Shown here one piece after another: positions 7,686 to 55,566 of a stretch of 64,000 bases of DNA. The stretch lies in assembly GCF_003334335.1 (NCBI RefSeq), contig NZ_QOWQ01000013.1; one strand, 5' to 3'. This DNA is from Escherichia coli. GTDB taxonomy: Bacteria > Pseudomonadota > Gammaproteobacteria > Enterobacterales > Enterobacteriaceae. Each line of letters starts with the position of its first letter. Positions within the stretch are counted from its first letter, which is position 1. Below the pieces are notes generated by a model that saw only the letters and a program-made list of their open reading frames with translations, had not been told where the DNA came from and did no database searches. The translations under genes were made by a program, and so were the position numbers.

Positions 7686-7712
7686 GCCGGATAAGGCGCA
7701 GCCGCATCCGGC
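7686..7712. repeat. REP (repetitive extragenic palindrome) element
   Basis: gccggataaggcgcagccgcatccggc imperfect palindrome between convergent yjiA and mrr. Confidence 0.6.
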
Positions 7713-7720
7713 CTGATATT

Positions 7721-8635
7721 TCACTCAAAATAGTCCATATCCAGTTTCGGCACCTTCAACAAACGTGAAGAAACCCCTACTTCGTTTTCGATCATTAAGT
7801 GCACCAGGCGTTCCCCATCAACCAACACCATACCCTCAACGGATTGGGCAAAGTCACGCGCCTGAGAAGTAAATCCAGAAGTGGTAATAAACACCCCACG
7901 TTTCGCTTTTTGCCCAGCCAGTGCGCCGTAAAATGCCTGTAATTCTGGCCTGCCTACAGTATTCTGCCAACGTTTTGCCTGAACATAAACTTTCTCCAGG
8001 CCAAGTTTATCAAGCGATATCACACCATCGATGCCACCATCTCCAGTACCGCCAACACGCTGCAAATCATCACGGTGGCCGCCATACCCCAGGCGATGCA
8101 AAACATCCAGAACAATGACTTCAAAGCGCGAAGGAGAAACCTGCAATAAGTTTTCCAGAGCCTCATCAGCCACCGCATCACGAAGCTCTTTTAGCGCCTG
8201 ATCTAACCGATCGTCCGGGCTGCTCTTTGCAAGTTCTTCATGATCGGGAGAGTCGGCTTTCGGATCTAAATCGACGGCATCCGGCCGTGACTTAAGTTTG
8301 ACATTCACAAAATCGAAGGCCAGATGGTTCGTCTCCTGCTCCGTCATTGGCTGGGGATGAGACGCAACCCAGTCAAAACCCGCAGGAGTCAGGCACCATT
8401 TGCCACGCGACAAACTTTGCGACAACCCGGCACGTTTTAAACGGTCATGCGCCCAGCCTGCACGATTTTTATAAACAAGTTGTCCGCTGGTAATGACTTT
8501 CGCTCGCTGGCTGTCATCCAGTCCTAATGCATCCGCGGCAGCCTCATGAACATCACGCGCGGCTGCACCTTCCGGTTTTGTCGCCAGATAACGCAGAACA
8601 GGTTCAATAAATTTGTCATAGGTTGGAACCGTCAT
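7721..8635 (-). CDS. mrr: Mrr modification-dependent (Type IV) restriction endonuclease
   Basis: 304-aa ORF; recognised as Mrr by sequence and by position next to hsdR. Confidence 0.93.
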   Translation of the reverse strand: MTVPTYDKFIEPVLRYLATKPEGAAARDVHEAAADALGLDDSQRAKVITSGQLVYKNRAGWAHDRLKRAGLSQSLSRGKWCLTPAGFDWVASHPQPMTEQETNHLAFDFVNVKLKSRPDAVDLDPKADSPDHEELAKSSPDDRLDQALKELRDAVADEALENLLQVSPSRFEVIVLDVLHRLGYGGHRDDLQRVGGTGDGGIDGVISLDKLGLEKVYVQAKRWQNTVGRPELQAFYGALAGQKAKRGVFITTSGFTSQARDFAQSVEGMVLVDGERLVHLMIENEVGVSSRLLKVPKLDMDYFE

Positions 8636-8822
8636 AGTACATCCTTGCAGAATCAGGTAGATGTTTTTCGGCTACTATAACACTACCAAAATAGGCGAAC
8701 ACGTTAGAAATGAGTCAGTTGCTGTGACCGTGGTCATTGCCCGGAAAGGTACAGAAAGCTAAGATGAGATGTTATGGGCCTTAAATATTTGGACAGGCCC
8801 GCACAGCAATGGATTAATAACA

Positions 8823-11800
8823 ATGATGAATAAATCCAATTTTGAATTCCTGAAGGGCGTCAACGACTTCACTTATGCCATCGCCTGTGCGGCGGAAAAT
8901 AACTACCCGGATGATCCCAACACGACGCTGATTAAAATGCGTATGTTTGGCGAAGCCACAGCGAAACATCTTGGTCTGTTACTCAACATCCCCCCTTGTG
9001 AGAATCAACACGATCTCCTGCGCGAACTCGGCAAAATCGCCTTCGTTGATGACAACATCCTCTCTGTATTCCACAAATTACGCCGCATTGGTAACCAGGC
9101 GGTGCACGAATATCATAACGATCTCGACGATGCCCAGATGTGTCTGCGGCTCGGGTTCCGCCTGGCTGTCTGGTACTACCGTCTGGTCACCAAAGATTAT
9201 GACTTCCCGGTGCCGGTGTTTGTGTTGCCGGAACGTGGCAAAAACCTCTATTACCAGGAAGTGCTGACGCTAAAACAACAGCTTGAACAGCAGGCGCGAG
9301 AAAAAGCGCAGACTCAGGCAGAAGTCGAAGCGCAACAGCAGAAGCTGGTTGCCCTGAACGGCTATATCGCCATTCTGGAAGGCAAACAGCAGGAAACAGA
9401 AGCGCAAACCCAGGCTCGCCTTGCGGCGCTGGAAGCACAGCTTGCCGAGAAGAACGCGGAACTGGCAAAACAGACCGAACAGGAACGTAAGGCTTACCAC
9501 AAAGAAATTACCGATCAGGCCATCAAGCGCACACTCAACCTTAGCGAAGAAGAGAGTCGCTTCCTGATTGACGCGCAACTGCGTAAAGCAGGCTGGCAGG
9601 CCGATAGCAAAACCCTGCGCTTCTCCAAAGGCGCGCGCCCGGAACCCGGCGTCAATAAAGCCATTGCCGAATGGCCGACCGGGAAAGATGAAACGGGTAA
9701 TCAGGGCTTTGCGGATTATGTGCTGTTTGTCGGCCTCAAGCCCATCGCGGTGGTAGAGGCGAAACGTAAAAATATCGACGTTCCCGGCAAGCTCAATGAG
9801 TCGTATCGCTACAGCAAATGCTTCGATAATGGCTTCCTGCGGGAAACCTTGCTTGAGCATTACTCGCCGGATGAAGTGCATGAAGCGGTGCCGGAGTATG
9901 AAACCAGCTGGCAGGACACCAGCGGCCAACAACGGTTTAAAATCCCCTTCTGCTACTCGACCAACGGGCGCGAATACCGCGCAGCAATGAAAACTAAAAG
10001 CGGCATCTGGTATCGCGACGTGCGTGATACCCGTAATATGTCGAAAGCCTTACCCGAGTGGCATCGCCCGGAAGAGCTGCTGGAAATGCTCGGCAGTGAA
10101 CCGCAAAAACAGAATCAGTGGTTTGCCGATAACCCTGGCATGAGCGAGCTGGGCCTGCGTTATTATCAGGAAGATGCCGTCCGCGCGGTTGAAAAGGCAA
10201 TCGTCAAGGGTCAACAAGAGATCCTGCTGGCGATGGCGACCGGTACCGGTAAAACCCGTACGGCAATCGCCATGATGTTCCGCCTGATCCAGTCCCAGCG
10301 TTTTAAACGCATTCTCTTCCTTGTCGACCGCCGTTCTCTTGGCGAGCAGGCGCTGGGGGCGTTTGAAGATACGCGTATTAACGGCGACACTTTCAACAGC
10401 ATTTTCGACATTAAAGGGCTGACGGATAAATTCCCCGAAGACAGCACCAAAATTCACGTTGCCACCGTACAGTCGCTGGTGAAACGCACCCTGCAATCAG
10501 ATGAACCGATGCCGGTGGCCCGTTACGACTGTATCGTCGTCGATGAAGCGCATCGCGGCTATATTCTCGATAAAGAGCAGACCGAAGGCGAACTGCAGTT
10601 TCGCAGCCAGCTGGATTATGTCTCTGCCTACCGTCGCATTCTCGATCACTTCGATGCGGTAAAAATCGCCCTCACCGCCACCCCGGCGCTGCATACTGTG
10701 CAGATTTTCGGCGAGCCGGTTTACCGTTATACCTACCGTACCGCGGTTATCGACGGTTTTCTGATCGACCAGGATCCGCCTATTCAGATCATCACCCGCA
10801 ACGCGCAGGAGGGGGTTTATCTCTCCAAAGGCGAGCAGGTAGAGCGCATCAGCCCGCAGGGAGAAGTGATCAACGACACCCTGGAAGACGATCAGGATTT
10901 TGAGGTCGCCGACTTTAACCGTGGCCTGGTGATCCCGGCGTTTAACCGCGCCGTCTGTAACGAACTCACCAATTATCTTGACCCGACCGGGTCACAAAAA
11001 ACGCTGGTCTTCTGCGTCACTAATGCCCATGCCGATATGGTGGTGGAAGAGCTGCGTGCCGCGTTCAAGAAAAAGTATCCGCAACTGGAGCACGACGCGA
11101 TCATCAAGATCACCGGTGATGCCGATAAAGACGCGCGCAAAGTGCAGACCATGATCACCCGCTTCAATAAAGAGCGGTTGCCCAATATCGTGGTGACCGT
11201 CGACCTGCTGACGACCGGCGTCGATATTCCGTCGATCTGTAATATCGTGTTCCTGCGTAAAGTACGCAGCCGCATTCTGTACGAACAGATGAAAGGCCGC
11301 GCCACGCGCTTATGCCCGGAGGTGAATAAAACTAGCTTTAAGATTTTTGACTGTGTCGATATCTACAGCACGCTGGAGAGCGTCGACACCATGCGTCCGG
11401 TGGTGGTGCGCCCGAAGGTGGAACTGCAAACGCTGGTCAACGAAATTACCGATTCAGAAACCTATAAAATCACCGAAGCGGATGGCCGCAGTTTTGCCGA
11501 GCACAGCCATGAACAACTGGTGGCGAAGCTCCAGCGCATCATCGGCCTGGCCACGTTTAACCGTGACCGCAGCGAAACGATAGATAAACAGGTGCGTCGT
11601 CTGGATGAGCTATGCCAGGACGCGGCGGGGGTGAACTTTAACGGCTTCGCCTCGCGTCTGCGGGAAAAAGGACCGCACTGGAGCGCCGAAGTCTTTAACA
11701 AACTGCCTGGCTTTATCGCCCGTCTGGAAAAGCTGAAAACCGATATCAACAATCTGAATGATGCGCCGATCTTCCTCGATATCGACGATGAAGTGGTGAG

Positions 11801-12335
11801 TGTAAAATCGCTGTACGGTGATTACGACACACCGCAGGATTTCCTCGAAGCCTTTGACTCGCTGGTGCAACGTTCCCCGAACGCGCAACCGGCATTGCAG
11901 GCGGTGATCAATCGCCCGCGCGATCTCACCCGTAAAGGGCTGGTCGAGCTACAGGAGTGGTTTGACCGCCAGCACTTTGAGGAATCTTCCCTGCGCAAAG
12001 CATGGAAAGAGACGCGCAATGAAGATATCGCCGCCCGGCTGATTGGTCATATTCGCCGCGCTGCGGTGGGCGATGCGCTGAAACCGTTTGAGGAACGTGT
12101 CGATCACGCGCTGACGCGTATCAAGGGCGAAAACGACTGGAGCAGCGAGCAATTAAGCTGGCTCGATCGTTTAGCGCAGGCGCTGAAAGAGAAAGTGGTG
12201 CTCGACGACGATGTCTTCAAAACCGGCAACTTCCACCGTCGCGGCGGGAAGGCGATGCTGCAAAGAACCTTTGACGATAATCTCGATACCCTGCTGGGCA
12301 AATTCAGCGATTACATCTGGGACGAGCTCGCCTGA
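8823..12335 (+). CDS. hsdR: Type I restriction enzyme R subunit HsdR (EcoKI family, IA)
   Basis: ORF 8769..12335; recalled EcoKI N-terminus MMNKSNFEFLKG gives start 8823 (1170 aa); helicase motifs GTGKT and DEAH visible. Confidence 0.95.
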   Translation: MMNKSNFEFLKGVNDFTYAIACAAENNYPDDPNTTLIKMRMFGEATAKHLGLLLNIPPCENQHDLLRELGKIAFVDDNILSVFHKLRRIGNQAVHEYHNDLDDAQMCLRLGFRLAVWYYRLVTKDYDFPVPVFVLPERGKNLYYQEVLTLKQQLEQQAREKAQTQAEVEAQQQKLVALNGYIAILEGKQQETEAQTQARLAALEAQLAEKNAELAKQTEQERKAYHKEITDQAIKRTLNLSEEESRFLIDAQLRKAGWQADSKTLRFSKGARPEPGVNKAIAEWPTGKDETGNQGFADYVLFVGLKPIAVVEAKRKNIDVPGKLNESYRYSKCFDNGFLRETLLEHYSPDEVHEAVPEYETSWQDTSGQQRFKIPFCYSTNGREYRAAMKTKSGIWYRDVRDTRNMSKALPEWHRPEELLEMLGSEPQKQNQWFADNPGMSELGLRYYQEDAVRAVEKAIVKGQQEILLAMATGTGKTRTAIAMMFRLIQSQRFKRILFLVDRRSLGEQALGAFEDTRINGDTFNSIFDIKGLTDKFPEDSTKIHVATVQSLVKRTLQSDEPMPVARYDCIVVDEAHRGYILDKEQTEGELQFRSQLDYVSAYRRILDHFDAVKIALTATPALHTVQIFGEPVYRYTYRTAVIDGFLIDQDPPIQIITRNAQEGVYLSKGEQVERISPQGEVINDTLEDDQDFEVADFNRGLVIPAFNRAVCNELTNYLDPTGSQKTLVFCVTNAHADMVVEELRAAFKKKYPQLEHDAIIKITGDADKDARKVQTMITRFNKERLPNIVVTVDLLTTGVDIPSICNIVFLRKVRSRILYEQMKGRATRLCPEVNKTSFKIFDCVDIYSTLESVDTMRPVVVRPKVELQTLVNEITDSETYKITEADGRSFAEHSHEQLVAKLQRIIGLATFNRDRSETIDKQVRRLDELCQDAAGVNFNGFASRLREKGPHWSAEVFNKLPGFIARLEKLKTDINNLNDAPIFLDIDDEVVSVKSLYGDYDTPQDFLEAFDSLVQRSPNAQPALQAVINRPRDLTRKGLVELQEWFDRQHFEESSLRKAWKETRNEDIAARLIGHIRRAAVGDALKPFEERVDHALTRIKGENDWSSEQLSWLDRLAQALKEKVVLDDDVFKTGNFHRRGGKAMLQRTFDDNLDTLLGKFSDYIWDELA

Positions 12336-12366
12336 CACGGTATCATTCCCGGCAATTTCTTCTTCT

Positions 12367-12389
12367 GCGGCCCCGAACATGCGGGCCGC
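12367..12389 (+). other. GC-rich hairpin in the hsdR-hsdM intergenic region (possible hsdR terminator or Pmod element)
   Basis: gcggcccc gaacat gcgggccgc inverted repeat; no strong T-run follows. Confidence 0.35.
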
Positions 12390-12411
12390 TGCTTAATTTA
12401 CGGAACTCACA

Positions 12412-14001
12412 ATGAACAATAACGATCTGGTCGCGAAGCTGTGGAAGCTGTGCGACAACCTGCGCGATGGCGGCGTTTCCTATCAAAACTATGTCAATGA
12501 ACTCGCCTCGCTGCTGTTTTTGAAAATGTGTAAAGAGACCGGGCAGGAAGCGGAATACCTGCCGGAAGGCTACCGCTGGGATGACCTGAAATCCCGCATC
12601 GGCCAGGAGCAGTTGCAGTTCTACCGTAACCTGCTGGTACATCTGGGCGCCGACAATCAAAAGCTGGTGCAGGCGGTGTTCCAGAACGTCAACACCACCA
12701 TTACCCAGCCAAAACAGTTGACCGAACTGGTCAGCAATATGGATTCACTGGACTGGTACAACGGTGCGCACGGTAAGTCGCGCGATGACTTCGGCGATAT
12801 GTACGAAGGGTTGTTGCAGAAGAACGCGAACGAAACCAAGTCTGGCGCGGGCCAGTACTTCACCCCGCGTCCGCTGATTAAAACCATTATTCATCTGCTG
12901 AAACCGCAGCCGCGTGAAGTAGTGCAGGACCCGGCAGCAGGTACAGCGGGCTTTTTGATTGAAGCCGACCGCTACGTTAAGTCGCAAACCAATGATCTGG
13001 ACGACCTTGATGGCGACACGCAGGATTTCCAGATCCACCGCGCGTTTATCGGCCTCGAACTGGTGCCTGGCACCCGTCGTCTGGCGCTGATGAACTGCCT
13101 GCTGCACGATATTGAAGGCAACCTCGACCACGGCGGCGCAATCCGTCTGGGCAACACCCTGGGTAGCGATGGTGAAAACCTGCCAAAGGCGCATATTGTC
13201 GCCACTAACCCGCCGTTTGGCAGCGCCGCAGGCACCAACATTACCCGCACCTTTGTCCACCCGACCAGCAACAAACAGTTGTGCTTTATGCAGCATATTA
13301 TCGAAACGCTGCATCCCGGCGGTCGTGCGGCGGTGGTGGTGCCGGATAACGTGCTGTTTGAAGGCGGCAAAGGCACCGACATCCGTCGTGACCTGATGGA
13401 TAAGTGTCATCTGCACACCATTCTGCGTCTGCCGACCGGTATTTTTTACGCGCAGGGCGTGAAAACCAACGTGCTGTTCTTTACCAAAGGGACGGTGGCA
13501 AATCCGCATCAGGATAAGAACTGTACTGATGACGTGTGGGTGTATGACCTGCGGACCAATATGCCGAGCTTCGGCAAGCGCACGCCGTTTACCGACGAGC
13601 ATTTGCAGCCGTTTGAGCGCGTATATGGCGAAAACCCGCACGGCTTAAGCCCGCGCACGGAAGGGGAATGGAGTTTTAACGCCGAAGAGACGGAAGTTGC
13701 CGACAGCGAAGAGAACAAAAATACCGATCAGCATCTGGCTACCAGCCGCTGGCGCAAGTTCAGCCGCGAGTGGATCCGCACCGCGAAATCCGATTCGCTG
13801 GATATCTCCTGGTTAAAAGATAAAGACAGTATTGATGCTGACAGCCTGCCGGAGCCGGATGTATTAACGGCAGAAGCGATGGGCGAGCTGGTACAGGCAT
13901 TGGGTGAACTGGATGCGCTGATGCGTGAACTGGGGGCGAGCGATGAGGCGGATGCGCAGCGTCAATTGCTGGAAGAAGCGTTTGGTGGGGTGAAGGAATG
14001 A
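12412..14001 (+). CDS. hsdM: Type I RM N6-adenine DNA methyltransferase subunit HsdM
   Basis: 529-aa ORF; NPPF catalytic motif (ATNPPFGSAAG) and AdoMet-binding region; 4-nt ATGA overlap with hsdS. Confidence 0.95.
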   Translation: MNNNDLVAKLWKLCDNLRDGGVSYQNYVNELASLLFLKMCKETGQEAEYLPEGYRWDDLKSRIGQEQLQFYRNLLVHLGADNQKLVQAVFQNVNTTITQPKQLTELVSNMDSLDWYNGAHGKSRDDFGDMYEGLLQKNANETKSGAGQYFTPRPLIKTIIHLLKPQPREVVQDPAAGTAGFLIEADRYVKSQTNDLDDLDGDTQDFQIHRAFIGLELVPGTRRLALMNCLLHDIEGNLDHGGAIRLGNTLGSDGENLPKAHIVATNPPFGSAAGTNITRTFVHPTSNKQLCFMQHIIETLHPGGRAAVVVPDNVLFEGGKGTDIRRDLMDKCHLHTILRLPTGIFYAQGVKTNVLFFTKGTVANPHQDKNCTDDVWVYDLRTNMPSFGKRTPFTDEHLQPFERVYGENPHGLSPRTEGEWSFNAEETEVADSEENKNTDQHLATSRWRKFSREWIRTAKSDSLDISWLKDKDSIDADSLPEPDVLTAEAMGELVQALGELDALMRELGASDEADAQRQLLEEAFGGVKE

Positions 14002-15347
14002 GTGCGGGGAAATTGCCGGAGGGGTGGGTTGAAACCTACCTTTCTGAAATATGTAGTAAACCACAATATGGTTATACAACTAAGTCGAGCTTTACAGGTA
14101 ATGTAAAATTTTTAAGAACTACAGATATTACTAAAGGTACTGTGGATTGGTCCACTGTACCTTATTGTTTGCAAAATCCTGATGATATACTTAAATATCA
14201 GCTTCAAGATCGAGATATTGTTATATCCCGGGCTGGTTCCGTAGGTTTTAGTTTTTTAGTAAAAAACCCACCGAATAATGCTGTCTTTGCTTCGTACCTG
14301 ATCAGATTCAAACCTTTTGATAATATTTCAGAGCTTTACTTGAAGCGTTTTTTAGAGTCCGGCAACTATTGGGTTCAGCTTGCCTCTATGTCGGCTGGAA
14401 ATGCATTACAAAATGTAAATGCTCAAAAATTATCCACGCTTATAGTACCAATTCCTCCACTTGCCGAACAAAAAATCATCGCTGAAAAACTCGATACGCT
14501 GCTGGCGCAGGTAGAGAGCACCAAAGCACGTCTTGAGCAAATCCCACAAATCCTGAAACGTTTTCGTCAGGCGGTGCTATCTAGTGCTGTTAGCGGTAAG
14601 TTAATTGACAAAAGCTTCGAAAATAAATTAGAAAAGCTCAATTCGTTTGTATCTATAGATATTGGTAATGCGTTCAAAAGCTCAGAGTTTAGTGATGAAG
14701 GCGTTCCATTACTCCGAGGACAAAATATAGAACCCGGAGCATTACGTTGGGATGACACAAAAAAATTCCCAATAGATAAACTTCAAAAATATTCTCATTT
14801 ATTTATTAATGAGGGCGATATTATATTAGCAATGGATCGCCCAATAATATCAAGCGGGTTAAAAATAGCTAAAGCCAAAAAAAGTGATCTTCCTTGCGTT
14901 CTGGTTCAACGAGTTGCCAGATTTAAAGATTTCGAAAATCTAATTCCTGACTATCTGTATTTGTTATTGAATGATGTGTCTTTTATTAATTATATTCAAC
15001 CAAATCAGACTGGTAGCGACATTCCGCATATCAGTGGAAAACAAATTTTAAACTTTGAGTGTAATGTCCCCTCTATCCCCGAACAACGCGAAATCGTTCG
15101 CCGCGTCGAGCAACTCTTCGCCTACGCCGACACTATAGAAAAACAGGTTAACAACGCCTTAGCCCGCGTCAACAACCTGACGCAATCCATCCTGGCAAAA
15201 GCGTTCCGTGGTGAGCTCACCGCCCAGTGGCGGGCCGAAAACCCGGAATTAATCAGCGGAGAAAACAGCGCCGCCGCGTTGCTGGAGAAAATCAAAGCTG
15301 AATGCGCAGCCAGCGGGGGTAAAAAAGCCTCGAGTAAAAAATCCTGA
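13998..15347 (+). CDS. hsdS: Type I RM specificity subunit HsdS (family IA conserved regions, distinct target-recognition domains)
   Basis: 449-aa ORF; N-terminus MSAGKLPEGW as in the EcoKI family; two AT-rich variable TRDs (about 14040-14460 and 14570-15070) separated by conserved LAEQKIIAEKLD...; conserved C-terminal IPEQREIV... Confidence 0.9.
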   Translation: MSAGKLPEGWVETYLSEICSKPQYGYTTKSSFTGNVKFLRTTDITKGTVDWSTVPYCLQNPDDILKYQLQDRDIVISRAGSVGFSFLVKNPPNNAVFASYLIRFKPFDNISELYLKRFLESGNYWVQLASMSAGNALQNVNAQKLSTLIVPIPPLAEQKIIAEKLDTLLAQVESTKARLEQIPQILKRFRQAVLSSAVSGKLIDKSFENKLEKLNSFVSIDIGNAFKSSEFSDEGVPLLRGQNIEPGALRWDDTKKFPIDKLQKYSHLFINEGDIILAMDRPIISSGLKIAKAKKSDLPCVLVQRVARFKDFENLIPDYLYLLLNDVSFINYIQPNQTGSDIPHISGKQILNFECNVPSIPEQREIVRRVEQLFAYADTIEKQVNNALARVNNLTQSILAKAFRGELTAQWRAENPELISGENSAAALLEKIKAECAASGGKKASSKKS

Positions 15348-15360
15348 TCATTATTTTCTG

Positions 15361-15386
15361 GCGCACCTTTCCGGTGCGCTTTTTAT
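15361..15386 (+). terminator. Rho-independent terminator after hsdS
   Basis: gcgcacc tttcc ggtgcgc stem-loop followed by tttttatt. Confidence 0.7.
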
Positions 15387-15481
15387 TATTTTACACCAAT
15401 CATAACCCACACAAATATATTTAAATCATTCCAGAAATTGCCTATTTTATTCTATTTTTAGCTGGACTTTCCCTGTATTTA

Positions 15482-15497
15482 CTGATGATATATCCAG
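15482..15497 (+). promoter_or_regulatory. Candidate LexA (SOS) box upstream of symE
   Basis: CTG-atgatatatc-CAG fits the CTG-N10-CAG SOS-box core with AT-rich spacer, about 80 bp upstream of the symE start. Confidence 0.45.
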
Positions 15498-15539
15498 GTA
15501 TTTAGCGCGGTGCGGATGTGCGCCAACACACCCGCACCG

Positions 15540-15620
15540 CTAATCACAATCACTATTTATAGGGAATAGCAGTTATGACTGACACGCATTCTATTGCACA
15601 ACCGTTCGAAGCAGAAGTCT
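15540..15620 (-). ncRNA. symR: SymR antisense sRNA (type I antitoxin) overlapping the symE 5' end; coordinates approximate
   Basis: Inferred from the known symE/symR arrangement; exact ends cannot be set from sequence alone. Confidence 0.3.
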
Positions 15621-15916
15621 CCCCGGCAAATAACCGTCAATTAACCGTGAGTTATGCGAGTCGCTACCCGGATTACAGCCGTATTCCCGCCATCACCCTG
15701 AAAGGTCAGTGGCTGGAAACCGCCGGTTTTGCTACCGGCACGGCGGTAGATGTCAAAGTGATGGAAGGCTGTATTGTCCTCACCGCCCAACCACCTGCCG
15801 CCGAAGAGAGCGAACTGATGCAGTCACTGCGCCAGGTGTGCAAACTGTCGGCGCGTAAACAAAAGCAGGTGCAGGAATTTATTGAGGTGATTGCCGGTAA
15901 ACGAAAAGTCGCCTGA
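15575..15916 (+). CDS. symE: SymE SOS-induced toxin-like protein (AbrB/MazE fold, RNA cleavage)
   Basis: 113-aa [37 protein letters not shown]... recognised as SymE. Confidence 0.9.
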
Positions 15917-15924
15917 TACATTGA

Positions 15925-15948
15925 CCCGGTAGCGCCAGTGCTACCGGG
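15925..15948. terminator. Hairpin between convergent symE and the DUF262/DUF1524 gene (probable bidirectional terminator)
   Basis: cccggtag cgccagtg ctaccggg stem-loop with T-rich tract on the plus side. Confidence 0.5.
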
Positions 15949-15962
15949 TATTATTCGCCACG

Positions 15963-18056
15963 TTATACCAACGCGCTCTCCATCTGTTTTTCAAATGCCT
16001 GACGGATTAATCCCATAATGTAAGGAAGTTGTGCGAGGTCGCTGAAACCAATTTCTACATCGCCATTGCCCCAGCGCCCAACATTTGTCACATCTTTGGC
16101 AATACCTTTCGGATCGACCAGTTCATGAAACTGCATATTAAGCGACAATCGCAGTCGGCTTTTTTGCGGCACAACATCAACAAAGTTCGTTTCCGCTTTA
16201 AACGCAATATAGAGCTTCAATACTTCCTGCGTGATCCCTGCGTCCAGGCGCATAACTTCATCGCGAAGATGATCGAATAACTCCCGACTATGCGAACCAT
16301 CAGCAAGAAAAGGAAAATCATTCAGGCTGTAATTGGTTTTGTTTTCAGGCTTCCCCCGATAAACAGCTAAAACCTCTTCAGGAAGAGCAGGCGCTTGCCA
16401 GACCTGAATTGCAAGCTCTGCCAGACGATCGGCTCGGGCGTGAATGGCGGCTTCATCCCATTTTTCGCACTGTCCAAGACCGATATTCAAATAGAGCGGG
16501 CTATGTTTAAAGCCGTCTTCAATATCGCGTTTTTCCGCGAAAGGTCTGTCACTGTAGCGGGAGTTATAGCGCGTTAATGTGAGATTCCCCAACGTATGCA
16601 ACAGTTCTTTATGAATGCGTTGCCAGTCACTTCCCAGCTCTTCACGCCATTTAGCCGACAAATTTTCGTTCTGCGGCATAATATGTTCAATCGTAAACTC
16701 TTCCACGCGCTCTCTGCGTTTATCGTTTTCCAGTCGTCGTAACCAGTAACTGCGACTGCGGAAGTTATAGAGATCGCGAACTTTTAATTCCCGTTTAAAT
16801 TCATCATCGTTGGGGAAACGACGATATGAAGGTAGATTCAGAAAATGTACCTGAATACTTTCCAGATAATTTTCTTTATTAATGACCTTATAAAAAGTAG
16901 CAAACGTCTTGTTAAGAGAATTTGTCGGAATCGCACATACTGCACGGCGGAAAACATAAGATTCAATTAAACGAATTATGTTCAGGAAATCTTCTTGAGA
17001 CAAAACGCCATTTTTATAGTCATGATAAAGCGCCAGTAAGAAAGGATACGCCACATCGACCTTTAACTCGCGCAAATCCTGAAAAGCCGTAGCAAGCGAT
17101 TTGTCACTTTCTTTTCCCAATGCCATTGCACAGTAATACTCCGCGTAGATGTGAATATCTTCAACCAGCCGATCTACGCCTTTTTCAGCAACACTCTGGC
17201 TGCGGGCATGGAGTTTAAATGCCTCATAGACTTCATCTGTCCGAGGGATCTCCCCTGTTTTTACCGTCAGATAATGACGCATAAAACTGTCAAAATATTC
17301 GCTGTAACCTTGCTGACCAAACGCGACTTCCATTGGACGCCAGTGATCTTCATACAACCGGGTTTGATGCTCTGGTTCGAGGCCCATCAGAATAAAATTG
17401 CGCACCAGATCGGCCTGACTTAACGCCTTACCGGTGGAGTTCATACTTTCAAAAATCAGTTGCGGATTATCCTGACCACGATTAAGCGCCACATCGACAA
17501 TTAATAATTTTGCTAACCCACGACATAAGGGAATCAAATCATCCCCGAGTTTGGCAATTTGTTCATCAAAGAAAGTAAAGTTTTCCATTATTCGATGGGA
17601 ATAGTTTTCTGGCATTGGTCTTTGTTTTATTAACGCCAGCAAACTGTCTTTATCAGTCTCGGTCAGCAGTAATTTAAATCCTTTCTCGCCGGACTCATAA
17701 GGATTGAGTAAATAATAATTACGCAATTTCATTGCTGAAAAGCCATCAAAAACTTCGTCTTCGCCAAGATGACGCGATAAAGCCTCAATCAGCAACATTG
17801 CGGTCGTCAGCCTTTGTTGACCATCAATGACCAGTAACGGAGAAATACCAGAAACCTGATACAACCCCTGCTCAATATAAACAACCGAACCGATAAAATG
17901 CGCTGATATATCGTCACGCTTTCCGGCACGAATGATGTCGTCCCAAAGTTGCCGACATTGTTGTTCTGTCCATGAATAAGTCCGTTGATAAATGGGAATA
18001 ACAAACTGCTGCGAACGTTTTAAAAAATCGAGTAGGCGGGCTTCTGTAGCTTTCAT
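15963..18056 (-). CDS. DUF262 (ParB-like NTPase) + DUF1524 (HNH/His-Me finger) fusion protein; GmrSD-like putative Type IV modification-dependent restriction endonuclease
   Basis: 697-aa ORF; N-terminal DGQQR motif (LVIDGQQRLTT) typical of DUF262; C-terminal region with EHIMPQN...LGNLTL His-Me finger-like motif typical of DUF1524; extra about 140-aa C-terminal extension; sits where mcrBC lies in K-12. Confidence 0.75.
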   Translation of the reverse strand: MKATEARLLDFLKRSQQFVIPIYQRTYSWTEQQCRQLWDDIIRAGKRDDISAHFIGSVVYIEQGLYQVSGISPLLVIDGQQRLTTAMLLIEALSRHLGEDEVFDGFSAMKLRNYYLLNPYESGEKGFKLLLTETDKDSLLALIKQRPMPENYSHRIMENFTFFDEQIAKLGDDLIPLCRGLAKLLIVDVALNRGQDNPQLIFESMNSTGKALSQADLVRNFILMGLEPEHQTRLYEDHWRPMEVAFGQQGYSEYFDSFMRHYLTVKTGEIPRTDEVYEAFKLHARSQSVAEKGVDRLVEDIHIYAEYYCAMALGKESDKSLATAFQDLRELKVDVAYPFLLALYHDYKNGVLSQEDFLNIIRLIESYVFRRAVCAIPTNSLNKTFATFYKVINKENYLESIQVHFLNLPSYRRFPNDDEFKRELKVRDLYNFRSRSYWLRRLENDKRRERVEEFTIEHIMPQNENLSAKWREELGSDWQRIHKELLHTLGNLTLTRYNSRYSDRPFAEKRDIEDGFKHSPLYLNIGLGQCEKWDEAAIHARADRLAELAIQVWQAPALPEEVLAVYRGKPENKTNYSLNDFPFLADGSHSRELFDHLRDEVMRLDAGITQEVLKLYIAFKAETNFVDVVPQKSRLRLSLNMQFHELVDPKGIAKDVTNVGRWGNGDVEIGFSDLAQLPYIMGLIRQAFEKQMESALV

Positions 18057-18152
18057 TCTGACGTCTTTCCGTGAAGCGATGATTTCGCAATAATAACCAC
18101 TTCCTTGTGGAGGTTATAGAGAAATCCTGTTTATCCGCGACGAACTGCCCCC

Positions 18153-30046: not shown

Positions 30047-31225
30047 ATGAATTCGACATCGCATCCCGTAGAACGTTTTTCTTTCAGCACCGCGTTATTC
30101 GGGATGCTGGTTCTGACCTTAGGTATGGGTTTAGGCCGCTTTCTCTATACGCCGATGCTGCCAGTCATGCTGGCGGAAGGCGAGTTTTCCTTTAGCGAAC
30201 TCTCATGGATCGCCAGCGGTAACTATGCCGGGTATCTGGCGGGGAGCCTGCTGTTTTCATTCGGCGCGTTTCATTTACCCTCACGCCTGCGCCCGTTCTT
30301 GTTAGCTTCCGCTCTCGCAACCGGATTATTAATCCTCGCGATGGCGTGGCTGCCGCCGTTTCTTCTGGTTTTCATCATTCGCTTTCTGGCGGGAGTCGCC
30401 AGCGCCGGGATGTTGATTTTCGGCTCAACGCTCATCATGCAGCATACTCGTCATCCCTTTGTCCTTGCGGCGCTATTTTCTGGTGTTGGCGTCGGCATCG
30501 CTCTGGGCAATGAATATGTGCTGGCAGGCCTGCATTTTGCCCTCTCTTCACAAACGTTGTGGCAAGGTGCCGGAGCACTTTCTGCCATTATATTGCTTGC
30601 TCTGGCGCTGCTCATCCCGTCGAATAAACACGTTATCCCGCCAGCGCCATTGGCAAAAATCGCGCAACAACCCATGAGCTGGTGGTTACTGGCGATTTTG
30701 TATGGTCTGGCGGGTTTTGGTTATATCATCGTCGCCACCTACCTGCCGCTCATGGCGAAAGACGCGGGCCAGCCTGTGCTGACGGCTCACCTTTGGACAC
30801 TGGTTGGCTTGTCGATTGTCCCTGGTTGCTTTGGCTGGCTGTGGGCAGCCAAACGGTGGGGAGCATTACCTTGCCTGACCGCGAATTTGCTGGTGCAGGC
30901 GATCTGCGTGCTGTTAACCCTCGCCAGCAGCTCTCCTTTATTACTCATCATCAGCAGTATTGGTTTTGGCGGCACCTTTATGGGGACGACCTCGCTGGTG
31001 ATGACCATCGCCCGCCAGCTTAGCGTGCCGGGAAATCTCAACCTTTTGGGCTTTGTGACACTCATTTATGGTATCGGGCAAATTCTTGGCCCGGCGCTGA
31101 CCAGCATGCTCGGCAACGGAACGTCGGCCCTCGCCAGTGCCACGCTCTGCGGCGCGGCGGCGCTATTTATCGCAGCATTAATCTGCGGGATGCAAATATT
31201 CAAATTGCATACGAATGATTCTTAA
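30047..31225 (+). CDS. yjiJ: MFS-family transporter YjiJ
   Basis: 392-aa hydrophobic ORF, about 12 TM segments. Confidence 0.85.
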
Positions 31226-31435
31226 GTAATTTAACGAATTTAACTTTTCAGTACATCACGTAAAATAATTAAAACATCCTTTTTCTTTGGAGGTACTCAA
31301 CCACCGCCGTTATTAATCCTGGTTTAGCAATTCCACGGCTAACTCATTATTTCTGGTCATATTATAGTCAGGATCGCATTATATCTCCGTGCTAGAAAAA
31401 ACAAGTTTAATTCTGTTTTTTCACGGAAGGTCACT

Positions 31436-34400
31436 ATGGCTTCAACAAATGCGCATCAAATAAAAAATAATGATCAAAACTCTTTATGTGGTCTGGGTGA
31501 CAAAATACGCCGCCTGACCGCCGGAGTTTGTTTATTTACACAAATTTTTTTCCCCGTCATGGCGACGGCACAAAATGTGGTACACGCTAAGCCTCAGACG
31601 ACAGTTTCATCTCCGTCCCCTCTAATAGAAAATAATACTGTGCCTTACACGCTTGGTGCGCTGGAATCAGCGCAAAGCGTTGCTGATCGATTCGGTATTT
31701 CACTGGAGGAGCTTCGTCGTCTTAATCAGTTCCGTACTTTTGCTCGCGGCTTTGATAACGTGCGCCAGGGTGAAGAGCTGGATGTTCCGGCAACAACCTT
31801 GCAGAAAAGTCATGAGCAACAAAATGCCGTACCGCCTGCGAATGGCGAAAACACGCTGGAGAATCAAATAGCCAGCACTTCGCAGCGAGTTGGCACCCTG
31901 CTTTCACAAGATATGAATAGTGAGCAGGCCAGCGGCATGGCGCGTGGTTGGGCGTCTTCAGAAGCCTCAGGCGCGATGACTGATTGGTTAAATAACTTTG
32001 GCACTGCGAAAATCTCTCTGGGTGTGGATGAAGATTTCAGCCTGAAAAATTCGCAATTCGACTTCCTGCATCCGTGGTATGACACACCCGATTATCTGCT
32101 CTTCAGCCAGCATACCCTTCACCGAACAGACGATCGTACCCAGATCAACACCGGTTTGGGCTGGCGTCATTTCACCCCCAGCTGGATGTCAGGCATCAAC
32201 CTGTTTTTTGACCACGACCTGAGCCGCTATCACTCCCGCGCGGGGCTTGGCGCAGAATACTGGCGTGATTATCTGAAGTTGAGCAGCAACGCTTATATCG
32301 GCCTGACCGGCTGGCGTAGCGCACCGGAATTGGATAATGACTACGAAGCCCGCCCGGCCAACGGCTGGGATTTACGCGCGGAAGGCTGGTTACCAGCCTG
32401 GCCACAACTGGGTGGAAAACTGGTCTATGAACAATACTATGGTGATGAAGTGGCGCTGTTTGACAAGAATGATCGCCAAAGTAATCCCCATGCTATTACC
32501 GCGGGCCTCAACTATACCCCCTTCCCGCTTCTGACTCTCAGTGCAGAACAGCGTCAGGGGAAGCAAGGTGAAAATGACACACGTTTTGCCGTTGATCTGA
32601 CCTGGCAACCCAGCAGTTCAATGCAGAAACAGCTTAACCCGGACGAAGTGGCCGGACGGCGCAGTCTGGCCGGTAGTCGTTATGACCTGATTGATCGCAA
32701 CAACAACATCGTTCTGGAATATCGCAAGAAAGAGCTGATTCGCCTGAGTCTGCTGGATCCGGTGAAAGGAAAGTCTGGAGAAATAAAACCGCTGGTTTCC
32801 TCGATACAGACCAAATATGCCCTGAAAGGCTATAACATCGAAGCCGCTGCGCTGGAAGCTGCCGGAGGTAAAGTCAGCACGTCTGGAAAAGATATCACGG
32901 TCACGCTGCCAGGTTACCGCTTCACTAACACTCCAGAAACCGATAATACATGGTCGATAGACGTTACCGCCGAGGATGTAAAAGGGAACCTGTCACGTCA
33001 TGAACAAAGCATGGTCGTCATTCAGGCTCCGACATTAAGCCAGAAAGATTCTCTGTTATCCGTTAATCCGCTAACCGTAGCTGCAGATAAAAAATCGACG
33101 ACCACATTGACCGTTACTGCGCACGATTCCGACGGAACTCCGGTGCCGGGGCTGGCGCTGCAAACCCGCAGTGAAGGCGTTCAGGATATCACCCTGTCTG
33201 ACTGGACAGATAACGGTGATGGTAGTTACACACAGATGCTGACCGCCGGAACGACATCAGGTTCAGTAACACTGACGCCGCAAATTAACGGTGAGAGTGC
33301 GGTAAAAGAATCCATTGTCGTTAATATCGTCCCTGTTGTCTCATCCCGCGACCATTCATCAATAACAATAGATAACGTATCGTATTATGCCGGAGACGAC
33401 ATCAAGGTTAGGGTGGAACTGAAAGACGACAGCAATCAACCGGTTGCATATCAAAAAGAGGAATTGGTAAAAGCCGTTACTGTCGAAAACAGCAAACCTG
33501 GCGCCACGATTGTCTGGCACGAAGAGCAGCCTGGCGTTTATACCGCGAATTATCCGGCCCATAAGCAAGGGACAGCACTAAGGGCACAACTTAGCCTTCA
33601 CAACTGGAATGCTCCACTGCAATCGCATATTTATAACATTGAGGCAAACCAGAATAAGGCTCGCGTCGCCACATTATCAGCGACGAATAATGACGTTTAC
33701 GCCGATAAAAAGACATTTAATACCCTCACGATCAACATCACTGATGAGAGTGATAATCCCCTGACAAATCATCAGGTCACCTTTAAGAATGAAAAAGGAA
33801 GCGCGGAGTTTGTCGAACCGCCGCAGCAAAATACGGATGCATATGGTGTTGCCACAATCAACATGGTAAGTCAGGTTGCGGAAGAAAATACGATTAGCGC
33901 CACGCTGCCAAATGGTTTCTCACAACGGATAATTGCGAAATTCGTTAGCGATTCGAGTACGCCAAAATTCAAACAACTGGTTGCCGATCCAGATACCATT
34001 ATTGCTGGCAACAGCCAGGGCAGTACTCTGACCGCCACCGTCACAGACTTTCATAACAACCCATTAAAAGATATGAAAGTGAATTTTGTGGCACCTGGTG
34101 GTTCGCAACTGGACAACACGACCGCCACAACAGACCAGTCCGGTATTGTGCGAGTGCACCTGACCAGTTCAAAAGCTGGTAGCTATTCCGTCGATGCCTC
34201 GCTTGAGGCGGATAAAAATATTCACCAGTCGGTCACGATCACCGTGGTCCCAAACAGGGAACAATCGGTAATGACCTTAAATGCCGGGTCAGGCAGTGCG
34301 ATCGCTAACAATACAAATACCGTTATCCTGACAGCCAGTGTGAAAGATGTTTATGGACACCCGTTGCCGGATGAGGATGTGAAATTTACCTTGCTAGCCT

Positions 34401-36676
34401 CTATGACCGGGAACTTCACGCTAAGTAGTGAAAGCGCCCGCACCGATGCAAACGGCGATGCCGTGGTCACATTGCGTGGCACAAAAGCGGGTGAGTTTAC
34501 AGTTACGGCGACGCTGACCAGAAATAATACCGTTGCTCATCAGCAAGTCACTTTTATTGGGGATACAAACAGCGCGCAGCTCCAGCCGCTGACTGCCTCA
34601 TTAAATACCATTGTTGCGGGTAACAGTACGGGGAGTACCCTGACTGCAACGATCCTGGACGCTTACCAAAATCCGCTTAAAGACCAGCTGGTCACTTTCC
34701 AGAGTAACGATGTCACTCTAAGTGGAACAGAAGTCACCACCAATACACTGGGTCAGGCGACGGTAACAATGACCAGCAATATTGCCGGGCAACATAACGT
34801 CGTGGTGAGCCGGAAAGCGCAAGCCTCCGATAATAAAACGTTTAGTTTATCAGTGCTGCCGGATGAAAGTTCGGCGAAGGTAATAAGTATAACCGGAGCC
34901 GAAAAAACGATAACGGTTGGCGAAAACATCACGCTACGGATACTCGTCCAGGACGCGTTTAACAATGTAATAGCGGGTCAACGCGTCAGATTAAGTGCGC
35001 AGCCAACAGCTAACATTACGATAGGCGATACGGCTTACACTGATAATAACGGTTACGCGTACGTTAACCTTCTCAGCACCCAGCCTGGGGTTTATCAGGT
35101 GACGGCAACGCTGGACAATAACAGTAGTAGTAAGGTTGACGTGAATGTGGCAAATGGCAAGCTCGAGTTAACATCATCGAAGCCAGAAACCACGGTCCAT
35201 AACAGTGAAGGTATTACGCTGACCGCAACGGCGAGAAATGCTCGGGATGAATTAATGCCTGGACAAATTATCACCTTTAGCGTAACGCCTGAAGGTGCAA
35301 CGCTAAGCAATACAGGGGAAGTCCTTACTGACCAGTATGGTCAGGCCAAAGTGACGCTGACCAGTGACAAAGTGAATGTCTATACCGTTACGGCCACAAT
35401 GGGCAAAGATGTTCCCGTTCAGAGCCAGGTAACGGTTGCGGTTAAGGCAGATGCTAAAACGGCACATGTTGTGAGCGTCGTGGCCTCTCCTGACACCATC
35501 ACCGCCGACGGCGTTGATAGCAGCACCATCACTTCACGAGTAGAAGATGATTACGGATTCCCGGTTGAAGGTGTCGATGTTCGTTACGCCTTAGACACCA
35601 AAGGTCGCCCGGTAGTTAATATTCCAACTACGCGTACCGATCAGTCCGGGCAAGTCACGGCGACAATAACCAGTACATTGGCAGAAACCTTAACGGTCAA
35701 TGTGCAAGTTCCTGGTACAGCCAACCAATCCGCAACCATTACCTTGATTGCCGACACGGCGGATGAAAGTAAGTCAATTTTGAAATCCGACGTTGGCACT
35801 CTGATGGCTGACTACCAGCATAGCGCGAAACTTACGCTAACATTGCAAGACAAGTACGGTAACCCGATAGTGACGTCTGATCATCTGGAATTTGTCCAGT
35901 CAGGTCCCTTCGTGAACTTTCTCAAGTTGAGTGATATTGATTACAGCCAAAGAAATTATGGCGAGTACACCGTGACTGTCACTGGCGGAAAAGAGGGAAC
36001 AGCGACTCTCATTCCCATGCTGAACGGGGTTCATCAGGCAAACTTAAGCGTATCGCTGAATCTCATCCGCTCGATAAAAGAAATGTCCGGTCATGTCACT
36101 GCAAACAACCATACCTTCTCCACGGCTAAATTCCCGAGCGAAGGTTTTGCAGGAGCGTATTACACACTCAACAATGATAACTTTGAAGCGGGTAAAACCG
36201 TTGATGATTATATGTTTTCAAGTTCACAGAGTTGGGTGTCGGTCGATGCTTCAGGTAAGGTTTCTTTCGCAAATATCGGCGATCAAACGTCAGTCACAAT
36301 AAGCGCTGTTCCCCGACAAGGAGGTACAACCTACCAGACCTTAATTAAGCTGAAAGGCTGGTGGGTAAATAATGGAAATCAAACCAATATTTGGCTAGCT
36401 GCCAATGCGCTCTGTCATGCGAAAAATGATGGATATAATCTTCCTGGCATCACACATTTGACGTCTGGCGAAAACCAACGCACGCAGGGATCTCTCTATG
36501 GTGAATGGGGGAACGTTGGAGCGTTTTCCAGTAATTCGCAATTTACACAAGGTGCTTACTGGACAAATGAATCTGATGATTACAATAGGCATTACTATGT
36601 GCAGATGCTAACCGGTATGACCGGAAGCGACGCTGATTCCAGCCCCCAACTGACCGCCTGCCGTAAATCACTTTAA
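31436..36676 (+). CDS. Inverse autotransporter adhesin of the intimin/invasin family (LysM, beta-barrel, multiple Big domains, C-terminal lectin-like domain)
   Basis: 1746-aa ORF; N-terminal LysM-like YTLGALESAQSVADRFGISLEELRRLNQF; intimin-type beta-domain (GLGWRHF...AEYW...GLNYTP); many Ig-like repeats of about 95-100 aa (TLTATV, VTVTAT patterns); Cys-containing C-terminal domain. Confidence 0.8.
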   Translation: MASTNAHQIKNNDQNSLCGLGDKIRRLTAGVCLFTQIFFPVMATAQNVVHAKPQTTVSSPSPLIENNTVPYTLGALESAQSVADRFGISLEELRRLNQFRTFARGFDNVRQGEELDVPATTLQKSHEQQNAVPPANGENTLENQIASTSQRVGTLLSQDMNSEQASGMARGWASSEASGAMTDWLNNFGTAKISLGVDEDFSLKNSQFDFLHPWYDTPDYLLFSQHTLHRTDDRTQINTGLGWRHFTPSWMSGINLFFDHDLSRYHSRAGLGAEYWRDYLKLSSNAYIGLTGWRSAPELDNDYEARPANGWDLRAEGWLPAWPQLGGKLVYEQYYGDEVALFDKNDRQSNPHAITAGLNYTPFPLLTLSAEQRQGKQGENDTRFAVDLTWQPSSSMQKQLNPDEVAGRRSLAGSRYDLIDRNNNIVLEYRKKELIRLSLLDPVKGKSGEIKPLVSSIQTKYALKGYNIEAAALEAAGGKVSTSGKDITVTLPGYRFTNTPETDNTWSIDVTAEDVKGNLSRHEQSMVVIQAPTLSQKDSLLSVNPLTVAADKKSTTTLTVTAHDSDGTPVPGLALQTRSEGVQDITLSDWTDNGDGSYTQMLTAGTTSGSVTLTPQINGESAVKESIVVNIVPVVSSRDHSSITIDNVSYYAGDDIKVRVELKDDSNQPVAYQKEELVKAVTVENSKPGATIVWHEEQPGVYTANYPAHKQGTALRAQLSLHNWNAPLQSHIYNIEANQNKARVATLSATNNDVYADKKTFNTLTINITDESDNPLTNHQVTFKNEKGSAEFVEPPQQNTDAYGVATINMVSQVAEENTISATLPNGFSQRIIAKFVSDSSTPKFKQLVADPDTIIAGNSQGSTLTATVTDFHNNPLKDMKVNFVAPGGSQLDNTTATTDQSGIVRVHLTSSKAGSYSVDASLEADKNIHQSVTITVVPNREQSVMTLNAGSGSAIANNTNTVILTASVKDVYGHPLPDEDVKFTLLASMTGNFTLSSESARTDANGDAVVTLRGTKAGEFTVTATLTRNNTVAHQQVTFIGDTNSAQLQPLTASLNTIVAGNSTGSTLTATILDAYQNPLKDQLVTFQSNDVTLSGTEVTTNTLGQATVTMTSNIAGQHNVVVSRKAQASDNKTFSLSVLPDESSAKVISITGAEKTITVGENITLRILVQDAFNNVIAGQRVRLSAQPTANITIGDTAYTDNNGYAYVNLLSTQPGVYQVTATLDNNSSSKVDVNVANGKLELTSSKPETTVHNSEGITLTATARNARDELMPGQIITFSVTPEGATLSNTGEVLTDQYGQAKVTLTSDKVNVYTVTATMGKDVPVQSQVTVAVKADAKTAHVVSVVASPDTITADGVDSSTITSRVEDDYGFPVEGVDVRYALDTKGRPVVNIPTTRTDQSGQVTATITSTLAETLTVNVQVPGTANQSATITLIADTADESKSILKSDVGTLMADYQHSAKLTLTLQDKYGNPIVTSDHLEFVQSGPFVNFLKLSDIDYSQRNYGEYTVTVTGGKEGTATLIPMLNGVHQANLSVSLNLIRSIKEMSGHVTANNHTFSTAKFPSEGFAGAYYTLNNDNFEAGKTVDDYMFSSSQSWVSVDASGKVSFANIGDQTSVTISAVPRQGGTTYQTLIKLKGWWVNNGNQTNIWLAANALCHAKNDGYNLPGITHLTSGENQRTQGSLYGEWGNVGAFSSNSQFTQGAYWTNESDDYNRHYYVQMLTGMTGSDADSSPQLTACRKSL

Positions 36677-36745
36677 TTTTAGTAGGTTATTAAGGATACC
36701 CTTGTGCGAGGGTATCCTTTCAGACTGATAACAAACGCTACATTA

Positions 36746-36768
36746 CCTGATGCGCTGCGCTTATCAGG
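36746..36768. repeat. REP element
   Basis: cctgatgcgctgcgcttatcagg palindrome. Confidence 0.55.
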
Positions 36769-36796
36769 CCTATATAACCCCTGCAATATATTGAAT

Positions 36797-37381
36797 TTAT
36801 TGTTTTTGTACCCCAGCCGGCATGAACGGCCACTCAAGAAACTCAACAGCAACCGTTGATGTCAGCCAGACCCCGTTTTCCGCTTGCCAGAAAGGGATGC
36901 CTCGTTTCGCCATTTCCTGTGCTTTGACGGTTAAGATAACCGGCGATCCGTGTCTTGCTCCCACTTTGCGTGCCGTTGCTTCATCAGCAGAGAGATGTAC
37001 GTAGTGACGCTCACCTGCAATCAGCCCCTGTTTTTTTATCTCGTCAAGGAAACGGCTTGCCGTACCGTGGTAGAGAAACTGTGGCGGTGTTTTTTCGGCA
37101 AAGGAAATAGCGACCTGCGAAGTCGAATGCCCCTGAACCGCGCGGATGCACCTACCATCACTGGAATAACTAAAACGCTTTTTATCGCTGGTGGCAACCA
37201 CAGTATCCAGCAATGCACGGGTTAACCGCTTGCCCGCTTTTTGGGCACAAAGTATGAGCTTATCGATATCCGCCCATCCTTCACGGTCCAGTACGATACC
37301 AATCGCCTCCGGTTTGTGTCGGAGGACAAAACTTAAAAACTTGCTCGTATCCGCCAGCTCTTTTTCGTTGTACTTTGCCAT
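36797..37381 (-). CDS. kptA: RNA 2'-phosphotransferase KptA (Tpt1 family)
   Basis: ORF 36797..37483; start [25 protein letters not shown] at 37381 chosen by recalled homology. Confidence 0.85.
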
Positions 37382-37630
37382 CGCGTTTTCGTCCCTGGAT
37401 TTTCTGTTTTTATTTACTGATGTCATTGTCACTGGGTTTATGAATTTACTGCAACTCAATCCTGCGCAGAACCTTTTCCCCATAGCGTAATTTTTCCGCT
37501 ATGCAAAAAACGCATAGCCAGAAACATACTTGCATTTTCCCCATACCCACATGGCTGATAAGGTTTTTCAGCTCCAGGAATTTTCCTGGCTCAAGCAACA
37601 CACAAACACAAAAAAACAATGGGGATTGTT

Positions 37631-55251: not shown

Positions 55252-55566
55252 TTGGGGCCAAAACTGTCCATATCATAAATAAGTTACGTATTTTTTCTCA
55301 AGCATAAAAATATTATAAAACGACAAAAAGCATCTAACTGTTTGATATATAAATCATTTCTCTTGTAAATTAATTTCACATCACCTCCGCTAAATGTAAA
55401 GCTAACGTTTCTGTGTCTCGAAGCAACTTCCTCATTCTTCTCTCCAAAAACCACCTCATGCAATATAAAAATCTATAAATAAAGATAACAATAGAATATC
55501 AAGCCAACAAATAAACTGAAAAAGTTTGTGCGCGATGCTTTCCTCTATGAGTCAAAATGGCCCCAA
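55252..55566. promoter_or_regulatory. fimS: fimS invertible phase-variation switch carrying the fimA promoter; appears to be in the ON orientation
   Basis: 9-bp inverted repeats ttggggcca (55252-55260) and tggccccaa (55558-55566); minus-strand TTGAGA-N18-TATGAT promoter-like hexamers near the fimA-proximal repeat, pointing toward fimA. Confidence 0.8.

Follow-up and report, generated by a model that had tools for sequence, protein, structure and literature searches.

Genes and sequence features between yjiJ and kptA

The window analysed here is a 64,000 bp stretch of Escherichia coli DNA (contig NZ_QOWQ01000013.1 of RefSeq assembly GCF_003334335.1), and a long open reading frame (ORF), referred to below as iatD, occupies positions 31436 to 36676 on the plus strand. 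The ORF list and the translation give 1746 codons followed by a stop codon, which is the size reported in the initial annotation, and the ATG start is preceded, at a distance of 5 nt, by a Shine-Dalgarno sequence, GGAAGG (31425-31430). The upstream neighbour is yjiJ (30047-31225, plus strand), and kptA (36797-37381, minus strand) is found downstream in the convergent orientation. The start given for kptA follows the 585 bp RefSeq annotation of other strains; the longest ORF covers 36797-37483 on the minus strand and matches the NCBIfam RNA 2'-phosphotransferase model (E 7e-129). The ORF list of the window shows no antisense ORF overlapping iatD with a length of at least 80 aa, and the GC content of the gene, which ranges from 0.45 to 0.53, is near that of the adjoining core genes.

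The 210 bp between yjiJ and iatD (31226-31435, read on the plus strand) are AT-rich, with a GC content of 0.434 in the segment 31000-31499, and are the putative site of the iatD promoter. A promoter scan returned a single promoter-like match in this gap (31240-31269). Over positions 31000 to 37000 the number of promoter and terminator matches was not above that obtained with shuffled sequences, and no iatD promoter or terminator is therefore claimed. The region between the convergent iatD and kptA genes (36677-36796) includes a GC-rich inverted repeat at approximately 36692-36719, which is not followed by a T-run and was not called by the terminator scan, and a palindrome, CCTGATGCGCTGCGCTTATCAGG, which is putatively REP-like by comparison with the REP consensus. 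Rfam gave no match in or beside iatD. Within the gene, Tandem Repeats Finder detected no DNA-level repeats, and variation in repeat number is thus not expected.

In E. coli K-12 MG1655, yjiJ and kptA adjoin one another, as stated in the initial annotation, and are separated by 12 bp. The segment that differs from K-12 extends from 31200 to 36829, so that approximately 5.6 kb in the window stands in place of approximately 40 bp. Base-by-base comparison revealed that homology to K-12 fades across the last 25-30 nt of yjiJ at the left border and returns at 36830, within the 3'-end of kptA, at the right border. Both flanking genes have alternative 3'-ends in the iatD-carrying and K-12 arrangements, and kptA is 585 bp in strains carrying iatD compared with 555 bp in K-12. 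No mobile-element signature was seen at the borders of the segment.

Predicted architecture of IatD

The 1746 aa product has an inverted topology in which the beta-barrel (residues 148-423) is N-terminal, and the array of Ig-like domains and the tip (residues 437-1746) are C-terminal. The initial annotation had assigned the product to the intimin/invasin family of inverse autotransporters, as a likely adhesin or invasin. The Pfam IAT_beta match together with the domain order agrees with this family, and the protein is probably an adhesin. The protein is also larger than FdeC, as had been noted, FdeC being 1,415 aa in length (PMC6714894). YeeJ (2,359 aa) and IatC (2,934 aa) both exceed IatD in length.

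Residues 1-45 (31436-31570) probably form an extended signal peptide. Inspection of the translation identified a basic KIRRL sequence, an 18-residue hydrophobic core, TAGVCLFTQIFFPVMATA, and A-T-A immediately before Q46, after which cleavage is probable. If translation began instead at M42, the following in-frame start, the signal peptide would lack its hydrophobic core. The barrel domain that follows (31877-32704) matches Pfam IAT_beta (PF11924) with an E value of 7.7e-109 over model positions 2 to 279 of 279, confirming the intimin-type beta-barrel predicted previously. Among known barrel structures, residues 185-430 match those of invasin (4e1t, E 1.1e-82) and intimin (4e1s, E 3e-68).

Between the signal peptide and the barrel is a LysM-like segment (residues ~68-117; 31637-31786), the weakest of the domains in the initial annotation. 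The Pfam LysM match is partial, covering 21 residues (79-99) with an E value of 0.058. In a phmmer search of the PDB, the best matches with a usable E value were to two LysM-containing cell-wall proteins, 4uz2, with which residues 70-103 aligned (whole-sequence E 0.0023, best-domain E 0.26), and LytE (8i2e, E 0.019). These matches are weak, and LysM-like is retained here as a description of the segment; a LysM domain is also predicted for IatD in PMC6714894. Among inverse autotransporters, a periplasmic LysM domain is a trait of the larger proteins and is not universal.

The first domain-sized unit beyond the barrel (residues ~437-535; 32744-33040, boundaries inferred) has no Pfam match of its own but is included in the span of two NCBIfam models. 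The intimin model aligns residues 152-530 with intimin positions 173-549, and the IatC N-terminal model spans residues 12-838. The unit corresponds to the first extracellular domain in intimin. It is followed by ten tandem Ig-like domains of the Big_1/Invasin_D3 type (residues 537-1536; 33044-36043). Nine of them are significant Pfam matches (residues 537-631, 745-836, 847-938, 946-1041, 1052-1135, 1149-1238, 1244-1333, 1346-1438 and 1443-1536), and the tenth (640-714) is a weak match that fits the spacing of approximately 100 residues. Together with an Invasin_D4 match further downstream, these account for the long run of Ig-like repeats described previously, and the total number of Ig-like domains in IatD is about eleven to twelve.

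The C-terminal tip consists of an Invasin D4-like Ig domain (residues ~1547-1651; 36074-36388), recognised by Pfam (Invasin_D4 at residues 1564-1624, E 7.9e-5), AlphaFold and Foldseek, and a C-type-lectin-like domain (residues ~1652-1746; 36389-36673), assigned from the structural model, Foldseek and phmmer. Pfam has no match in the last 120 residues. An exhaustive HMMER search of representative sequences with residues 1540-1746 as the query returned 274 clusters at E ≤ 0.001, from which 41 sequences were taken for alignment. With this alignment, AlphaFold produced a model of the last 207 residues with a pLDDT of 96.7 and a pTM of 0.90; a single-sequence prediction of the last 317 residues was unusable (pLDDT 30.5).

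When the tip model was compared with the PDB using Foldseek, the top match was invasin (1cwv; TM 0.82, rmsd 2.5 Å, E 1.4e-12) and the second was intimin (1f00; TM 0.67). For the last domain these were followed by snake-venom and human C-type lectin-like domains. At the sequence level, phmmer aligned the last three domains of IatD with domains D3-D5 of invasin 1cwv (E 2.3e-12). On the basis of this confident model, the fold of the tip is predicted to be nearer to D4-D5 of invasin than to intimin. Cys1660, Cys1742 and W1691 are invariant in the 41 tip relatives. The two cysteines, both located in the lectin-like domain, are expected to form a disulfide, which would correspond to that of the lectin-like domain of invasin. 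A C-terminal lectin-like cap with a conserved disulfide is typical of the subgroup comprising intimin, invasin and YeeJ. The suggestion that the Cys-containing C-terminal domain resembles the lectin-like tip of intimin and invasin is therefore upheld by a C-type-lectin-like fold with two invariant cysteines.

From the sequence and from what is established for the family, a route of export and display can be proposed. The long signal peptide would direct IatD via Sec to the periplasm, where the N-terminal barrel (residues 148-423), predicted to be 12-stranded, would enter the outer membrane via BAM and the LysM-like segment, given its weak signal, may hold the protein to peptidoglycan. The C-terminal passenger would then be threaded outward through the barrel as a hairpin and fold outside the cell into a stalk with approximately twelve Ig-like domains. 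The stalk would present an invasin D4-D5-like, disulfide-stabilised, C-type-lectin-like tip, the fold of which is predicted by modelling, and the tip, as in other members of the family, would be expected to bind a ligand.

Identity, distribution and selection

The gene EcSMS35_4876 of strain SMS-3-5 (5,241 bp) was named iatD by Goh et al. (2019, mSphere 4:e00572-19, PMC6714894). The protein encoded in the window is identical to SMS-3-5 IatD at 1719 of 1746 positions with no gaps (98.5% amino acid identity). The two share their length (5241 bp), their locus and the architecture predicted in PMC6714894, namely a signal sequence, LysM, barrel, Big1 repeats and a C-type lectin cap, and differ by 27 amino acid substitutions. 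The window allele is nearer to those of the type strain ATCC 11775 (1740 of 1746 residues identical, 99.7%, corresponding to 6 substitutions) and S88 than to that of SMS-3-5. RefSeq genomes label the gene iatD, with the product "inverse autotransporter IatD", at 97-99.6% nucleotide identity, and the order yjiJ-iatD-kptA is common to SMS-3-5, ATCC 11775, NA3664 and O157:H7.

The ORF is thus almost certainly iatD, encoding IatD, an E. coli surface protein of the type Ve (inverse) autotransporter class, with export and display as proposed above. The full-length alignment with EcSMS35_4876 and the shared locus, the two tests applied to this identification, both agree with it, and no evidence contradicting it was encountered. 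Among the results that would speak against its proposal, the initial annotation had listed identity to an adhesin characterised previously at the same locus. Since the alignment is gap-free, with 1719 of 1746 residues identical, and the locus is the same, such an adhesin exists in IatD of SMS-3-5. The gene is already named, annotated and partly characterised, and the observation is correct but ordinary.

Cloned SMS-3-5 IatD was located on the surface of K-12 strain MS427 by immunofluorescence, and its overexpression led to biofilm formation in microtitre plates and flow chambers (PMC6714894). This phenotype was obtained in a flu mutant of K-12 in which overexpression was driven by IPTG; neither autoaggregation nor binding to extracellular-matrix proteins was seen, and wild-type SMS-3-5 gave no detectable IAT proteins when grown in LB or M9 at 28, 37 or 42°C (PMC6714894). 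The only other literature found on iatD was a mention in a review.

In megablast searches of 5426 complete E. coli genomes, the whole iatD gene was detected in 639. The passenger-coding DNA alone (nt 2065-5241 of the gene) was found in 642 (~12%), in each case as one chromosomal copy at the iatD locus, and iatD is absent from the remaining ~88%. In every genome checked for position, the carrier locus was yjiJ-kptA. The gene is therefore lineage-associated, and the earlier description of it as strain-specific does not hold, as 642 of 5426 genomes carry the passenger-coding DNA.

About half of 60 carriers, sampled at even steps, have an allele with 96.8% identity to that in the window, and most of these genomes are labelled O157:H7 or O55:H7. 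In the single O157:H7 genome checked, iatD is annotated as a frameshifted pseudogene. The frameshift is due to a 1 nt insertion at nt 178, which ends the frame after the 66th codon. The O157 allele is otherwise free of stop codons, suggesting that the inactivation is recent. IS2 interrupts iatD in at least 2 further genomes, N18-04097 and SWYHX138.33gt, and these interruptions, together with the O157:H7 pseudogene, indicate that iatD is dispensable in some lineages. If all O157:H7-type alleles share the frameshift seen in the one O157:H7 genome, intact iatD would be present in roughly 6% of genomes. This estimate agrees with the published prevalence of 6% (7 of 126; PMC6714894).

The ratio of non-synonymous to synonymous substitution (dN/dS) was calculated by the Nei-Gojobori method for the window allele against those of SMS-3-5, ATCC 11775, NA3664 and O157:H7, with the inserted base removed from the last. 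Values were 0.12-0.15 (about 0.13) and were similar in the stalk and the tip, the exception being a value of 0.40 for the N-terminal third in the SMS-3-5 pair, which is based on only 7 substitutions. The length of iatD is identical in all alleles compared, and the 4 intact alleles retain the 1746-codon frame at 97-99.6% nucleotide identity. The low ratios indicate purifying selection on intact iatD alleles.

These data bear on the possibility that iatD is a cryptic, decaying gene without present function in nature, the phenotype seen on overexpression being an artefact of a large and sticky surface protein. The failure to detect native expression in SMS-3-5 (PMC6714894), the 1 nt insertion in the one O157:H7 copy checked, the IS2 interruptions and the absence of the gene from ~88% of complete genomes would all be consistent with decay. 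However, dN/dS is low in every region other than the N-terminal third of the SMS-3-5 pair, and the four intact alleles compared all retain a whole frame of constant length. For lineages in which iatD is still intact, these observations speak against a cryptic gene in decay, and the inactivation in O157 appears recent. This explanation is therefore considered unlikely.

Ligand of the tip and comparison with known systems

The similarity of the tip to invasin raises the question of whether IatD is a functional invasin, with a D4-D5-like tip that binds beta-1 integrins and drives uptake by host cells as does the invasin of Yersinia. Both the structural comparison, in which invasin D4-D5 is the closest match (TM 0.82), and the alignment with invasin D3-D5 (E 2.3e-12) would allow for this, but identity to invasin across the tip is only 24%. 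In addition, Asp911 and Asp811, the integrin-binding residues of invasin, are not conserved. Asp911 aligns with Asn1664, to which Asp1665 is adjacent, and Asp811 aligns with Ala1564, and neither column belongs to the invariant or nearly invariant set in the 41-sequence alignment. An invasin-type interaction with integrins is thus not supported by the residues at these positions. Binding of extracellular-matrix proteins by IatD was likewise not seen (PMC6714894), and a role for IatD as an integrin-dependent invasin is improbable.

The reading of the ORF as a yeeJ or iatC allele relocated to the yjiJ-kptA locus, prompted by a score of 1125.8 bits over the N-terminal 840 residues with the NCBIfam IatC N-terminal model, by ~77% identity between iatD nt 199-1994 and yeeJ, and by 48.8% identity between IatD and K-12 YeeJ over residues 20-1541, is refuted, as the IatC score is far under the 2400-bit cut-off, identity to YeeJ is below 50%, yeeJ keeps its own locus by asnT, some genomes carry iatD and the other gene at separate places, and nt 2065-5241 match the iatD locus alone, at one place per genome.

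With the ORF taken as iatD, one tentative view of its role is that the tip may recognise a specific host or environmental ligand other than integrin or Tir. On the same view, the iatD-espX6 block could be an old haplotype that is under purifying selection in some lineages (ATCC 11775, S88, SMS-3-5 and O157/O55:H7) and has been lost from K-12-like lineages, and that possibly aids colonisation by some extraintestinal strains.

The gene itself is not a discovery. What is added here is a confident model of the tip, which places D4-D5 of invasin nearer to it than intimin, the lack of conservation of the two integrin-binding aspartates of invasin, the prevalence of the gene among 5426 complete genomes, and the dN/dS evidence of purifying selection on intact alleles.

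Comparison with other inverse autotransporters sets IatD apart from each of them. Intimin (Eae of EPEC/EHEC) resembles IatD in its barrel (4e1s, E 3e-68) and in its Ig and lectin-like tip (1f00, TM 0.67). However, IatD scores 365.8 bits with the NCBIfam intimin model and does not reach the equivalog cut-off of 1400, the iatD locus is outside any LEE island with no adjoining tir, and the stalk of IatD is much longer. Invasin of Yersinia pseudotuberculosis shares the barrel fold (4e1t), the D3-D5 alignment, the tip fold (TM 0.82) and the Cys pair of the lectin domain, but has four Ig-like domains compared with about twelve in IatD, and 24% identity in the tip.

IatC (EcSMS35_4024 of SMS-3-5) has the plan of LysM, barrel, Big1 repeats and lectin domain in common with IatD (PMC6714894), and the relationship is reflected in the match of the N-terminal 840 residues of IatD to the IatC model at 1125.8 bits. 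IatD differs in scoring under the 2400-bit cut-off, and the length of IatC varies from 2,459 to 2,965 aa whereas that of iatD is constant. YeeJ of K-12 (b1978) is likewise similar in architecture, with 48.8% identity over IatD residues 20-1541, falling to ~38% in the tip and the distal part of the passenger. Among 14 mostly fragmentary matches to the C-terminal 307 aa, those nearest to the tip are fragments named YeeJ, with 47-51% identity. YeeJ, for which the current annotation of K-12 gives 2339 aa, exceeds IatD in length, contains more Ig repeats and is encoded at a locus beside asnT, and IatD is a paralogue, rather than an orthologue, of YeeJ.

espX6 and the ends of the iatD segment

Upstream of the inverse autotransporter gene iatD, a 712 aa pentapeptide-repeat protein is encoded on the forward strand (window 26745-28883) by a gene of low GC content (0.31-0.41), which contains nine copies of a 24 bp tandem repeat at 28555-28771. 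The O157:H7 orthologue of this protein is annotated in RefSeq as EspX6, a T3SS effector pentapeptide repeat protein, and the predicted products differ in length among strains (657, 697, 712 and 758 aa). K-12 lacks espX6. The gene was found in 636 of the 5426 complete E. coli genomes, and because this count nearly equals that of the genomes carrying iatD (642), espX6 and iatD are suggested to form a single haplotype block.

The genes on either side of iatD, kptA (3′-end at window 36797-36829) and yjiJ (3′-end at 31200-31225), also differ in their 3′-ends between K-12 and the strains that carry iatD. In the latter, kptA is 10 codons longer than in K-12, and the breakpoint coincides exactly with the stop codon of K-12 kptA. 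In O157:H7 strain PNUSAE146743, both iatD and the adjoining kptA are annotated as frameshifted pseudogenes (positions 1501-7449 of the locus sequence). The iatD frameshift is a 1 nt insertion at nt 178, and beyond the effect of this single insertion the reading frame contains no further stop codon.

The immigration-control region

The gene content of window 1-15443, which includes btsT, the type I restriction-modification genes hsdR, hsdM and hsdS and their neighbours, differs from that of the type strain ATCC 11775. Only 14 of the 5426 genomes carry, at a single place, at least 80% of window 1-18200, which fits high variability of the region. The SymR antitoxin sRNA (window 15504-15580, reverse strand; RF01809, 94.3 bits) is the sole Rfam match at the gathering threshold within the 64 kb window. 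Between symE/symR and yjiS, a position where ATCC 11775 has no counterpart, lies a 697 aa ORF (15963-18056, reverse strand) that strongly matches the PADLOC model Orf5 (PDLC02693, E = 5e-223), with lesser PADLOC matches to the HEC-06, type IV methyl-directed restriction enzyme and SspE models. An NCBIfam search with this ORF returned no match. The ORF is probably a defence gene.

Orientation of the fim invertible element

The fim invertible element, fimS, occupies window 55252-55566, flanked by TTGGGGCCA and TGGCCCCAA, and contains a promoter facing fimA (TTGAGA-17 nt-TATGAT). Its orientation is opposite to that in the reference assemblies of K-12 MG1655 and ATCC 11775. We take the fimA-facing orientation seen here to be phase-ON, and that of the K-12 reference to be OFF.
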